From: a plasmid
Strand: one strand, 5' to 3'
Sequence record: NZ_CP047975.1
DNA length: 64,000 bases
Shown in pieces: positions 1-3,000 of this stretch. Each line of letters opens with the position of its first letter. Positions within the stretch are counted from its first letter, which is position 1. The position numbers are program-made.

Positions 1-3000
1 GTGGGATCGAAAATCGCGATGCAACTGGGGCGAGCAGGTTTCGGCTCAATGACTTTCGTCGACAACGAGTCCATGTCACCTCATAACGCGGCACGGCATG
101 CACTCATTGAGCGGACATCGGTACTGGTCCCACCTCGGAAGTCGGCGCGGATGAAGACGGCCTTTGAGGAGCTGTCGCATCTTCAATCGCGCGCGTTCGA
201 CACCGACGCCGTGACCCTTCTGGTCGATCCGGCACAGTTCGCCACAGTCATTCCGCAGGATGCGGCTCTCATCGTGGATGCGACGGCCTCACTTCAGGTG
301 CTGGCCGCAGAAACACAATCAGCAGTACTGAACCAGTCTCCTGCCCGCCTGGTACGGATCGCGATGTATGGTCAGGGCCGCTGTGTCGCGGTTTTGCTTG
401 AAGGACCTAGTCGCGCCGGTCGGGTTGACGACCTCACGGCATTCTTGTTCGAGTGCTGTCGGTTTGTGCCGGAACTGCGGGCATCGATTGCTGGGGATAC
501 GTCGGAGCCGACGCGCATTTTTGTGGGCGACAACTGCCGTTCACTGACGATGCCAATGTCTGATGCCGTTGTTTCGCGTTCTTCGTCACTGGCCGGTCTG
601 CAACTGGAACGCTGGCTCGTTGGCGGGCTTCCGAAGGAGGCGATGCTTTGCACCGGGATCTCGGATGCCGAAGGCCTCGGCATGGCATGGACCCGCGCCA
701 GTCTTGGCCCGACCACTGTGCTCGACGTAGCTGATGATGGTGGCTGGAACATTCGGATTCTGCACCCAGTCGTGCAAGCGATCCATGCCGATGCGCTGCA
801 CTGGGGCGCTCTGGAAACAGGCGGAGCCTTGGTCGGCCGCATCTCGTTTGAAAATCGAACCATCACCATTGCGGGCATCGTGGACGCGCCGCCTGACAGC
901 ATTCGAGAGGCCGCCTGCTTCGTCCTCGGAACGGATGGACTTGTTCAGAATTTGCGTGCGGCAAATGGAGCCTCTTTAGGGTATCTCACCTTCATCGGAA
1001 CTTGGCACAGCCACCCGAAAGGCGGCCCACACTCGGGCATAGACCGAAACACATTGCGCAACATCGCCGAGGATGCTGGTGGTCTTCCCGCCGTGTCGTT
1101 GGTATGGACTCCGACAGGACCCACATGTGCGGTGGATCGCTGGTAGGGGTAAAGCCACCAGCACTTTATTGGCATAAAACAAGAGGGATGTATGGCTGAC
1201 TACTTCGAGATCGATTTTCTTGGCGTCGAAACAGCAAAAAGCGGAGATGCGATCACGCTTCGCTATTCTGTGAATGGCACTGAGGGCGTGCACGTCGTTG
1301 ACGGAGGATATCTGGATACGGGAGATCAGATTGTCGAGCACCTGAAGACCTACTACGGAACAACAGTCATCGACCATGTGATTCTCACGCACCCTGATCG
1401 CGATCACGCAAATGGTTTGCGAAAAGTTCTAGAGCAGTGCACGGTCAGAAATCTTTGGATCAACAGGCCGTGGATCTATGCAGATCAGTTGATTGATCGA
1501 TTCGAGACCTATGAATCGGTTGAGGCGCTGAGACGGAAGTTGCGCTCCATCTACGATGCCACGGCAATTCTTGAGGATCTGGCGGTAGAAAAGGGAATTC
1601 CAATCCATGCCCCCCTTCAGGGGCAGAGCATCGGCCCCTTCACTGTGATGGCACCAACCCTGGGGCGCTATTTCGACCTGATTGTGGACTCCACGAAGAC
1701 ACCGGAGGCTGTTGAAGAAAGTGCTTTGGACAGCGCGTTGAGCGGCATATTCCGGGCAATGAAGGCCGCGACCGCCTACATCAAATCCCTGTGGGGCGAG
1801 GAGTATTTTCCGCCTGAGCCTACCAGTCGTGAAAATGAAATGAGTGTGGTCCAGTCGGCTGTCCTGAACGGTCATCGTGTCATGCTTACTGGCGATGCCG
1901 GGCGTGAGGCGCTGCAAGAGGTTATTGACTACGCGCCATTTGCCGGACTCGCGTTGCCAGGCATTCGGTATTTTCAGGTGCCCCACCATGGCGGGCGGCA
2001 CAATGTCTCGACTGAAATTCTGGACCAACTGGTTGGTTCACGGTTGGACAGTATGCCGATCCAGCATACCTGGAATGCCATTTGCAGTTCTGCCAAAGCC
2101 GATGAGGATCACCCGCGGAAGTCCGTAATTCGCGCTGTATTACACCGGGGTGGGCACTGGGCGGCAACCGAAAGCAAGAATCTCCGCATCGGGGCGGGCA
2201 TTACCCGCGATGGTTGGGTATCAATTCCTCAAGCGGAGTACCCCGAAGAACAAGAGAGTTGAGTCTATGAATGCGATGTCGCTCTCTGAGTTACCAACTT
2301 CAGTGCTCGAACTCCACACATGGCCGTGGTGGCGAAGATATTGGAATCGACCGCCGGAACTGGTTCGGAAGCGGTGTGAAGCTTGGTGTGAACTATTGGA
2401 GCTTAGGGAGGCGGCAGGAAAAGGCGTGCGCCTCAACACCCCAAAATCGAAGATTTTTGATGACTCACGCCGTCGATGGAGCATCCTGGATAAACTCGAC
2501 CGTGGCAACTTTACTTTGCGGAGTCGCTTTCCGGTCTCAGCCTGGGGCGCTAAGGAGGATTTTCCAAAGTCCACATGGATCGCTAGTGCAAGTGACGATG
2601 GCGCCTCACTTTGAATGCGACGCAAGCGATATAGAGGGCATCTCCTCAAGTAAGTCAGCAGGCATGCCGCACGAAAATGTGGATGTCTTTGGTGCCTACT
2701 ATATTGATGAGCAGAATCGATATGCCAGAAAAGGAAAGCCCTCGCTCTGACTGGATGATGCGAGCTTAAAAGAGCTTTGTTCACATGGCGAAATCCGGCT
2801 AATGCACGGACGTGGCTCCGACACGTTTAGCGTGCGAGCTTGGGATGGCCGTTTTTCCTTGATAACAGTGGCGGATCTCACCATCTTGCGGGCGCCGTGC
2901 ATGTCGCCACGCGCATTGGCGCGAGCATTCACCACGCCTCGAAACTCTATCTCTACCAGCTCAACCATTTGACTGTGCAATGGCTGCTCGATGGATTTCA

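Follow-up and report, generated by a model that had tools for sequence, protein, structure and literature searches.

A plasmid-borne 6A-MBL-type locus of Acinetobacter with a probably accessory second MBL-fold gene behind cap2_3

The name 6A-MBL was reportedly introduced by van den Berg et al. in 2024, who are also said to have tested the anti-phage activity of the system. The operon type is defined in row 6a of Table 1 of Iyer, Burroughs and Aravind (2006; PMC1779556), and two secondary sources report 6A-MBL as anti-phage in P. aeruginosa (PMC13276650; 10.1101/2025.09.30.679545). The mechanism of Cap2, the corresponding enzyme of type II CBASS, involves a C-terminal glycine, the E1 cysteine C548, which is located on a crossover loop, and the E2 cysteine C109 (10.1101/2022.03.31.486616). 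Bub enzymes are described as having no catalytic cysteines (PMC11601596), and a group of related defence MBLs are autoinhibited DNases that are released by a partner protease (10.1101/2025.09.03.673762). The system reported below is thus already described, and only modest added detail is new.

The DNA analysed here, referred to as the window, is a stretch of 64,000 nucleotides from a plasmid (NZ_CP047975.1). It matched 11 Acinetobacter plasmids at 100% identity, and the missing upstream DNA was read from these. The window is collinear with pNDM1_010045 up to position 38357, and annotation was transferred for that part alone. In the source plasmid, the gene order is memb (minus strand), a BrxR-like WYL regulator (minus strand) and, divergently, MBL1, cap2_3 and MBL2 (plus strand). 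The 3.4 kb that include the end of cap2_3 are 100% identical in the 11 plasmids and the gene order was seen again in dozens of genomes; therefore, this arrangement is not a chance feature. We estimate the probability that MBL1 and cap2_3 form a 6A-MBL system, a Ubl-less sister or relative of type II CBASS, at about 0.8, and it is just as probable that window positions 1–2262 make up the 3' terminal part of a mobile defence cassette with five genes. The following features were assigned in the window:

1–1146, plus strand: 3' end of cap2_3, 1146 nt, residues 371–751 of 751 aa (NF058523, Pfam, Foldseek)
4–327, plus strand: ThiF/E1 Rossmann adenylation core, N-terminally cut (Pfam ThiF, aa 2–109)
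535–537, plus strand: codon of Cys549 (VGDNCRSLT), predicted E1 catalytic cysteine in the crossover loop (conservation and AF2 loop)
766–1104, plus strand: JAB/JAMM metallopeptidase domain with the full catalytic set (Pfam Prok-JAB, PADLOC JAB)
1147–1191, plus strand: intergenic spacer between cap2_3 and MBL2, 45 nt, with a GAGG ribosome-binding site (Shine-Dalgarno) at 1183–1186
1192–2262, plus strand: MBL2, 356 aa, intact; MBL-fold phosphodiesterase of the ComEC type and predicted DNase, PDC-M48B (PDLC04676, AF2)
2267–3220, plus strand: DUF6685-family pseudogene, about 338 aa when intact (profile matches in different frames)
3284/3285, no strand: right border of an 8.8-kb high-GC island fragment (homology end and GC drop)

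The first open reading frame (ORF1, 381 aa) is open at its 5' end, where the window edge cuts the E1 domain within its nucleotide-binding loop (GxGxxG), and the rest of the gene lies upstream in the identical plasmids, as expected from the original prediction that the window cuts an operon. The NCBIfam model NF058523 (6A-MBL cap2_3; cut-off 320 bits) matched the window fragment with 328 bits at profile positions 310–665 and the full-length 751-aa protein with 552 bits. In the full-length protein, Pfam domains are arranged in the order Prok-E2_A (5–165), ThiF (363–473) and Prok-JAB (626–734), the first of them occupying the N-terminal third of the polypeptide (4.7e-57). The fusion of a ThiF-like domain to a JAMM domain, which had been read from ORF1 earlier, was borne out by Pfam matches to ThiF (aa 2–109, 32 bits, cut-off 28.1) and Prok-JAB (aa 256–368, 43.7 bits, cut-off 25, 2.8e-11) as well as by the PADLOC JAB model (4.7e-16); the Lactamase_B match of the next gene likewise agrees with the proposed E1-JAB/MBL neighbourhood. 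The motif HSHPKGGPHSGID at nt 1006–1044 fits HSHPx5SxxD. The JAMM residues are E642 (nt 814–816, LETGG), H706 and H708 (1006–1014), S715 (1033–1035) and D718 (1042–1044), and 18 homologues share all of them without exception, including the glutamate of LETGG. The E1 core has kept R381, D391, N399 and R402 (numbered as in the full-length protein), which are likewise invariant. The copy in the P. aeruginosa island shares about 88.5% identity with Cap2_3.

Modeling of Cap2_3 with AF2 (pLDDT 81) led to a structure closest to Cap2, then to Atg7. The top PDB match in Foldseek was Cap2 (7TO3_A, 2.6e-21), and the Cap2 E1 domain alone gave a TMt of 0.81 against the model. In a search of the PDB with the Cap2_3 sequence profile, Cap2 was aligned over the Rossmann segment alone; the E1 cysteine therefore had no alignment partner and was not assignable in this way. 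Conservation and loop position nevertheless point to Cys549 as the predicted catalytic cysteine. It is invariant in sets of 11 and 18 homologues and lies in residues 545–555, which AF2 modelled as the sole long loop of low confidence within the E1 domain. C101 of the E2 domain is also invariant among homologues, so that the catalytic set of a 6A-MBL protein (E2 Cys, the predicted E1 Cys, and JAMM E/HxH/S/D) is intact.

Directly upstream of cap2_3 is MBL1 (positions 9701–10894 of L001, the locus from an identical plasmid), which was matched by the second 6A-MBL model, NF058524, with 443 bits (cut-off 220). The MBL1 stop overlaps the cap2_3 start by 4 nt, which indicates translational coupling. 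MBL1 carries a tail of about 40 residues that ends in P-M/L-P-H-G, with an AS dipeptide added on this plasmid. Each of 32 distinct tails with 40–98% identity closes with PHG, with or without two further residues. Among the annotated and translated upstream genes there is no separate Ubl, and, given this tail, the C-terminus of MBL1 itself is probably the conjugated moiety. The E1 domain of Cap2_3 would adenylate the C-terminal glycine of this tail, from which the AS extension would first be trimmed by the fused JAB domain. The tail would then be passed as a thioester to Cys549 of the E1 domain and to Cys101 of the E2 domain and would finally be ligated to a target. Ligation may prime or relocate the putative ComEC-like DNase effector in phage infection, and the JAB domain may also reverse the conjugates.

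The gene that follows cap2_3 had been described as encoding an MBL-fold protein 43 bp downstream. The fold was supported by Pfam Lactamase_B (26.5 bits, cut-off 22.7), while the gap is 45 nt. The PADLOC model PDC-M48B (PDLC04676) matched MBL2 over profile positions 1–356 of 357 (7e-153). With NF058524, MBL2 scored only 27 bits, under the cut-off of 220, and its identity to MBL1 was 31% over 78 aa only; MBL2 is a second, distant MBL paralogue, probably accessory, and not the cognate 6A-MBL enzyme. All metal ligands that are invariant in the family (H67, D69, D71, H72, D235, H265 and H266) are present. In the AF2 model (pLDDT 84.6), whose top PDB fold match was the ComEC lactamase-like domain 9ic4 (7e-14), aa 173–201 form a disordered insertion. 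MBL2 ends where the globular part of MBL1 ends (EYPEEQES versus EYPSEKS), without a glycine tail, and its conserved C-terminal end is the acidic YPEEQE. We take MBL2 to be a lineage-specific PDC-M48B add-on that is presumably co-transcribed with cap2_3 and probably not conjugated. It likely works as a further nuclease effector and may depend on the resident memb, the usual partner of its family.

A broader interpretation takes all five genes as one composite. The four-TM memb and the BrxR-like regulator would then be core partners, hitherto unrecognised, for ComEC-type MBL effectors as a whole, and two nuclease arms of this clade would share one membrane partner, MBL1 being licensed by ubiquitin-like self-conjugation through its PHG tail after JAB trimming and MBL2 acting independently of conjugation. 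This interpretation, which we regard as tentative, was suggested because memb and the BrxR-like regulator accompany MBL1 and cap2_3 in most 6A loci, and also accompany MBL2-type enzymes in places without Cap2_3. Members of the MBL2 family with memb but without cap2_3 were found in Burkholderia, Xanthomonas, Klebsiella and Acinetobacter. Neither memb nor the BrxR-like regulator was matched by NCBIfam models. Long ORFs upstream of the MBL2 homologue in a Burkholderia locus (L002) had no Pfam matches and look spurious.

A closer bond between MBL2 and its neighbour would exist if MBL2 were an integral third component and Cap2_3 controlled both MBLs, by conjugation or through the JAB protease, in a dual-effector system. 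Both genes lie on the same strand, and a scan of positions 900–3500 revealed not a single promoter-like site, nor a terminator separating cap2_3 from MBL2, although this is weak evidence. MBL2 is under strong purifying selection (dN/dS 0.04–0.07), as tight as that of MBL1. In a survey of 61 species-representative loci, MBL2 was found after cap2_3 in 33 of the 36 loci of one widely transferred clade (Cap2_3 identity of at least 82.7%), across many genera, and the other three retain remnants; a second MBL2-like gene also lies beside other 6A loci (L010, L055 and L061). The short gap, the purifying selection and these last three loci indicate that MBL2 may be functionally tied to Cap2_3. Control by a protease would also fit the release of the related autoinhibited DNases and the disordered insertion of MBL2. 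However, MBL2 lacks the glycine tail, was found in 0 of about 20 more distant 6A loci (29–76% identity) with enough downstream DNA, and is common as a family without Cap2_3. In locus L044, homology stops exactly at the stop codon of cap2_3. Moreover, P. aeruginosa islands have a frameshifted MBL2, and the gene is truncated or deleted in L014, L015 and L039; the remaining operon is intact in all of these. An integral role of MBL2 is therefore improbable, and the accessory status given above is preferred.

The original prediction placed the locus among the Bil, Bub or CBASS-ancillary operons and held that Ubl and E2 partners, if present, would be upstream. Its assignment to the E1/E2/JAB family of phage defence stands; the operon type does not. 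PADLOC E1-E2 and JAB models from CBASS did match, down to 1e-16, and the fold is closest to Cap2. However, the annotated and translated genes in 12 kb upstream of the window, read from an identical plasmid, included no Ubl, separate E2 or nucleotidyltransferase, and no CD-NTase or cyclic-nucleotide effector was found in these 12 kb or in 15 kb downstream. MBL1 lies there instead, and E2, E1 and JAB are on one polypeptide. The NCBIfam equivalog for CBASS Cap3 scored 19–21 bits (cut-off 200), and C101 and C549 are invariant here, in contrast to the cysteine-free Bub enzymes. A fragment of an operon with a separate Ubl and E2, or with a CD-NTase, is thus very unlikely. The absence of an upstream Ubl or E2 gene, named beforehand as evidence against the prediction, is literally true but does not refute conjugation chemistry, because the E2 domain is fused and the substrate is apparently the C-terminal glycine of MBL1. 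A sulfur-carrier adenylyltransferase of the MoeB/ThiF type, with a role in cofactor metabolism and a hydrolase gene beside it by chance, can be dismissed, since beyond the Pfam ThiF match the MoeB, ThiF and TcdA equivalogs matched weakly (13–35 bits versus cut-offs of 150–450), E2 and JAB domains are fused to the protein, so that the MoeB/MOCS3 protein without JAB that had been named in advance as contrary evidence is not seen, the gene lies in a defence island beside a ProA/Hhe-like helicase and the BrxR-like regulator, and cofactor genes such as those for ThiS or MoaD were not found in the vicinity.

The 6A-MBL cassette is part of a high-GC island fragment of 8.8 kb (L001 6470–15284). The island from which it was acquired is in circulation in Pseudomonas, Burkholderiales and Xanthomonadales. 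The earlier reading of a foreign high-GC block with an abrupt end was confirmed, but not its GC value of about 62%. The GC content was 56.5% for positions 1–2614 and 55.7% for 1–3230, and it falls from 55.5% to 34.8% at about 3285, where low-GC Acinetobacter plasmid DNA begins. Homology to islands of other genera (L013 and L016) ends at window position 3284. Where the high-GC block begins and ends, neither direct nor inverted terminal repeats were found, and a megablast search of E. coli genomes gave zero matches.

Between MBL2 and this border, a small Trp-rich protein had been proposed. The ORF is present (ATG at 2267, stop ending at 2614). However, it is only a piece of a pseudogene, consisting of the N-terminal 98 codons of a DUF6685 gene and an out-of-frame tail. 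Positions 6–38 of the DUF6685 profile matched nt 2616–2750, and positions 76–200 matched nt 2840–3220 in another frame. An intact orthologue of 338 aa in L016 contains DUF6685 at aa 113–323. In comparison with this orthologue, 188 nt are deleted from the window at 2256–2262, one nucleotide is added at 2559, a TGA codon occurs at 2748–2750 and one nucleotide is lost at about 2855, so the gene lesions comprise two frameshifts and one stop codon. The small ORF carries the annotation "DUF6685 family protein" in NZ_KT852971. The possibility that this ORF or DUF6685 is the PDC-M48A partner was rejected, as neither gave PADLOC or tblastn matches, and a literature search for PDC-M48 or DUF6685 found no paper mentioning either.

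What appeared to be a partial ubiquitin-like operon can thus be given the name of a curated defence system, with the missing half readable from identical plasmids. Acinetobacter plasmids with blaNDM-1/blaOXA-58 carry an apparently intact 6A-MBL cassette, which bears on phage therapy directed at strains that harbour them. The invariant PHG or PHG+2 ending of the MBL1 tail offers a direct sequence-based test of the model of an enzyme acting as its own Ubl. Since memb and the BrxR-like regulator recur with 6A-MBL and the second MBL was repeatedly gained and lost, the two-gene definition of the system may be incomplete.

A comparison with known systems places the locus as follows. Bil and Bub operons likewise make use of E1, E2 and JAB chemistry, in a setting of defence or mobile elements, but they have separate Ubl, E1 and E2 genes, unlike this locus, and Bub has Ser/Tyr in place of the cysteines that are invariant as C101 and C549. 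MBL2 resembles the ComEC/Rec2 domain in its HxDxDH and PHHG metal-binding motifs and in its best PDB fold match. Weak HMM matches of MBL2 to Avs1a, LmuA and RTasMBL link it to defence MBL effectors; unlike Avs1a, LmuA-type and trypsin-MBL effectors, it is a stand-alone protein of 356 aa with a predicted activity and without a trypsin partner or a STAND or helicase sensor. PDC-M48, itself a candidate system only, includes the B component that MBL2 matches over its full length, and MBL2 relatives adjoin PDC-M48A in L004, L043 and L075. However, tblastn with PDC-M48A (about 164 aa) gave no match in the window or the parent plasmid L001, PADLOC gave none for the ORFs downstream of MBL2, and the usual partner of this MBL2 branch is a membrane protein of about 260 aa. 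The possibility that memb is a long PDC-M48A relative was rejected (hhalign probability 0.4%, E = 0.17); the two are analogous in position only.

Type II CBASS is close in structure: Cap2 is the best structural match, the E2-linker-E1 layout is Atg7-like, catalytic cysteines on E2 and E1 domains are combined with a JAMM peptidase, and the disordered, glycine-ended C-terminal tail of the partner enzyme would be the substrate. In contrast to CBASS, the partner here is a ComEC-like MBL hydrolase and not a nucleotidyltransferase, a cyclic-nucleotide effector is lacking, JAB is fused instead of being encoded by a separate gene (Cap3), and sequence similarity to Cap2 is confined to the Rossmann segment. 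From 6A-MBL as defined, the window differs in that it holds the last 381 codons of cap2_3 only, with the cognate MBL outside, in the extra downstream MBL of this clade, and in memb and the BrxR-like regulator, which are outside the two-gene NCBIfam definition. Nevertheless, 6A-MBL shares with this locus a triple-module E2-E1-JAB protein adjoining a specialised MBL gene, scores above the cut-offs of both NCBIfam models (NF058523 and NF058524) and a position in a mobile defence island.

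The 5' end of the window is a known system, 6A-MBL, truncated by the window edge. The original prediction had described an ORF fusing ThiF and JAB domains with an MBL-fold gene after it, and both were found. It had also assumed that the window cuts the operon, and the missing part was supplied by L001, the locus of the plasmid pNDM1_010045 (NZ_CP028560.1; window position = L001 position minus 12000). The sequence at nt 1-3400 is 100% identical in 11 Acinetobacter plasmids, including this one, and had no match among E. coli genomes. The features are as follows:

Window 1-1146, + strand: 3' fragment of cap2_3, the E2-E1-JAB gene; 381-aa ORF open at the window edge, with Pfam domains ThiF (aa 2-109) and Prok-JAB (aa 256-368)
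Window 1192-2262: MBL2, a 356-aa MBL-fold ORF, 45 nt after cap2_3
Window 2267-3220: DUF6685-family pseudogene (upstream deletion, two frameshifts, nonsense codon)
L001 10770-10894, upstream of the window: tail region of MBL1, with the P-M/L-P-H-G motif
L001, upstream of MBL1, opposite strand: WYL/BrxR-type regulator
L001, upstream of MBL1, opposite strand: memb, membrane protein of 262 aa

The full cap2_3 gene in L001 encodes a 751-aa protein in which Prok-E2_A (4.7e-57) is followed by ThiF and then Prok-JAB, and the window starts within its GxGxxG loop. Cap2_3 scored 552 bits on NF058523, the NCBIfam equivalog "anti-phage 6A-MBL system cap2_3 protein" (cut-off 320 bits), and the window fragment alone passed with 328 bits. 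The JAMM signature is complete (Glu of LETGG at nt 814-816; HSHPKGGPHSGID at nt 1006-1044) and its residues are invariant among homologues. For a homologue with 89% identity, the AF2 model (mean pLDDT 81) was matched best in the PDB by E. cloacae Cap2 (7TO3_A, E = 2.6e-21, alignment over 644 columns) and next best by Atg7; against the E1 domain of Cap2 alone, the TMt was 0.81. Cys549 (VGDNCRSLT; window nt 535-537) is invariant among Cap2_3 homologues and is located in the single long low-confidence loop of the modeled E1 domain (residues 545-555), a position matching that of Cap2 C548 on the crossover loop (10.1101/2022.03.31.486616). Its invariance and position allow us to infer that Cys549 is the E1 catalytic cysteine, the residue for which a check had been proposed. 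Cys101 of the E2 domain is likewise invariant.

MBL1, the cognate 6A-MBL enzyme (397 aa), is encoded directly upstream of cap2_3, its stop codon overlapping the cap2_3 start, and scored 443 bits on NF058524 ("6A-MBL system MBL-fold protein", cut-off 220). The predicted membership in a general E1/JAB/MBL defence family held, but the suggested likeness to Bil/Bub was wrong, the E2 being fused into Cap2_3. Ubl and E2 genes had been expected upstream; the L001 genes there were MBL1, the regulator and memb, and no gene for a Ubl, a nucleotidyltransferase or a stand-alone E2 was present. The operon type is row 6a in Table 1 of Iyer, Burroughs and Aravind (2006); the type known today as type II CBASS is their row 6b, which includes a pol-beta nucleotidyltransferase (PMC1779556). 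Secondary sources describe 6A-MBL as confirmed anti-phage in P. aeruginosa (PMC13276650) and list it among jumbo-phage defences (10.1101/2025.09.30.679545). Beyond memb, a ProA/Hhe-like DUF4011 helicase (1718 aa; L001 1117-6273, some 6-11 kb before the window begins) scored 1781 bits on the NCBIfam model 'anti-phage protein ProA' (cut-off 1500), and the cassette is therefore located in a small plasmid defence island. The remaining points of interest are what the PHG tail of MBL1 shows, MBL2 as an accessory gene, and the membrane and BrxR partners that recur beside the system.

The MBL gene in the window had been misassigned: NF058524 gave MBL2 27 bits, whereas PADLOC PDC-M48B matched it at 7e-153. 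It is not the equivalent of MBL1, sharing with it only 31% identity over 78 residues around the HxDxDH motif. Its end (…EYPEEQES) coincides with that of the MBL1 globular part (…EYPSEKS), and it therefore lacks the approximately 40-residue Gly-terminated tail. The spacer after cap2_3 holds a GAGG ribosome-binding site, and scanning it revealed no promoter-like or terminator-like site. The closest fold to the AF2 model of MBL2 (pLDDT 84.6) was that of the lactamase-like nuclease domain of ComEC (9ic4, 7e-14), and all family-invariant metal ligands are retained. Related defence MBLs are autoinhibited DNases (10.1101/2025.09.03.673762). The sole disordered segment of the model (aa 173-201, window 1708-1794; pLDDT below 50) is variable in the family and reminiscent of inhibitory loops in protease-activated defence MBL DNases. 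Intact MBL2 is under strong constraint (dN/dS 0.04-0.07; 0.03-0.07 for MBL1, 0.11-0.17 for cap2_3).

Comparison of 61 species-representative loci encoding Cap2_3 relatives showed that MBL2 was gained in one clade. There, where Cap2_3 identity is at least 82.7%, it lies directly 3' of cap2_3 in 33 of the 36 loci whose flank is long enough, and truncated or deleted remnants of it stand in the other three. Of about 20 such loci at 29-76% identity, none has it after cap2_3, and in L044 DNA homology ends exactly at the cap2_3 stop codon. A functional tie between MBL2 and Cap2_3 is unlikely: P. aeruginosa islands carry an MBL2 with a frameshift near residue 250 while the other four genes are intact, and the family has more than 2,100 homologues away from Cap2_3. 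There its members accompany a memb homologue (Burkholderia L002/L076, Xanthomonas L078, A. baumannii L005, P. fluorescens L010; in Klebsiella L077 the order is memb(-) BrxR(-), MBL2(+)), PDC-M48A (L004, L075) or other small proteins (L009). Differently arranged 6A loci (L010, L055, L061) have a second MBL2-like gene nearby. The preferred reading is that MBL2 is a PDC-M48B-type accessory effector, added onto the 6A-MBL operon. In L010 (1-13908), whose Cap2_3 is only about 26% identical to that of the window, two PDC-M48-like MBL modules lie directly beside the BrxR-MBL1-cap2_3 cassette, as does a gene, truncated by the end of the locus, whose 1934-aa product has a Trypsin_2 domain.

At most of the 61 loci, down to a Cap2_3 identity of 44%, MBL1-cap2_3 comes with the four-TM memb and the BrxR-like WYL regulator (L001 7914-9611). 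Three loci have memb directly 3' of cap2_3, and in L069 that position is occupied by a PDC-M48A-like protein. Searches of memb against NCBIfam, PADLOC and Pfam matched no model or family, and no homology to PDC-M48A was detectable. Its homologues pair with MBL2-type enzymes at loci without cap2_3. The synonymous divergence of neighbouring genes varies about threefold (dS ~1.5 for memb, ~0.45 for cap2_3; L006 and L020 against L001), which suggests that the whole cassette is a recombinational mosaic.

The small Trp-rich protein predicted as a third gene is the first fragment of a DUF6685 pseudogene. DUF6685 profile positions 6-38 match nt 2616-2750, and positions 76-200 match nt 2840-3220 in another frame. 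The same DNA forms a single uninterrupted ORF in Ectopseudomonas oleovorans (L016), 338 aa from its ATG, with a Trp-rich N-terminus and a complete DUF6685 domain (aa 113-323). Compared with it, the window copy carries a 188-nt upstream deletion, a +1 insertion at 2559, a TGA at 2748-2750 and a -1 deletion at about 2855, identically in all 11 plasmids. Only 6 of the 61 loci have the gene; intact orthologues occur in six related islands.

The abrupt end of a high-GC block was predicted correctly, with GC falling to 34.8% after about 3285, but its GC content over 1-2614 is 56.5%, not 62%. Homology to islands of other genera covers L001 6470-15284, ending at window 3284, and no terminal repeats were found at the borders. 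In Pseudomonas, an integrase/AlpA pair on one side and MksBEFG on the other flank the same five genes. The Acinetobacter plasmids therefore acquired 8.8 kb of an island that has travelled widely. Just after the GC drop, an HTH (Cro/C1-type) gene and an ImmA/IrrE M78 peptidase gene (3485-4372) resemble CapH/CapP regulators (PADLOC capH 5e-9, capP 2e-17), followed by small ORFs and an integrase (about 6249-7448). The alternating GC mosaic of the window is partly resistance cargo (10000-15500, 18706-19548, 23000-30300), and collinearity with pNDM1_010045 ends at 38357, past which MFS transporters are also encoded. The first three positions below were transferred from a 99.98%-identical plasmid:

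About 10184-11041: aac(3)-IId
About 18706-19548, - strand: blaOXA-58
About 29381-30193: blaNDM-1, in an ISCR/groEL/ble/blaNDM-1 block
41037-45301: RND efflux pair
47033-48896: two-component system
50195-52610: ABC-F protein and phosphotransferase pair, msr/mph-like in appearance
58835-60139: UmuC
60988-62535: type I HsdM

All 32 distinct MBL1 C-terminal tails from the 61 loci (40-98% identity) contain a conserved P-(M/L)-P-H-G near or at the end. In some tails the glycine ends the protein; in the rest exactly two more residues, of variable identity, come after it (AS, SS, TR, TQ, AR, AA, SA, HP; PHG-AS in the source plasmid). This pattern is that of a Ubl precursor, and MBL1 probably serves as its own "Ubl". 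The fused JAB would then trim the dipeptide after PHG and would also reverse MBL1 conjugates. The Gly tail of MBL1 parallels the CD-NTase tail of type II CBASS, which is adenylated by Cap2 and has a C-terminal Gly in V. cholerae (10.1101/2022.03.31.486616).
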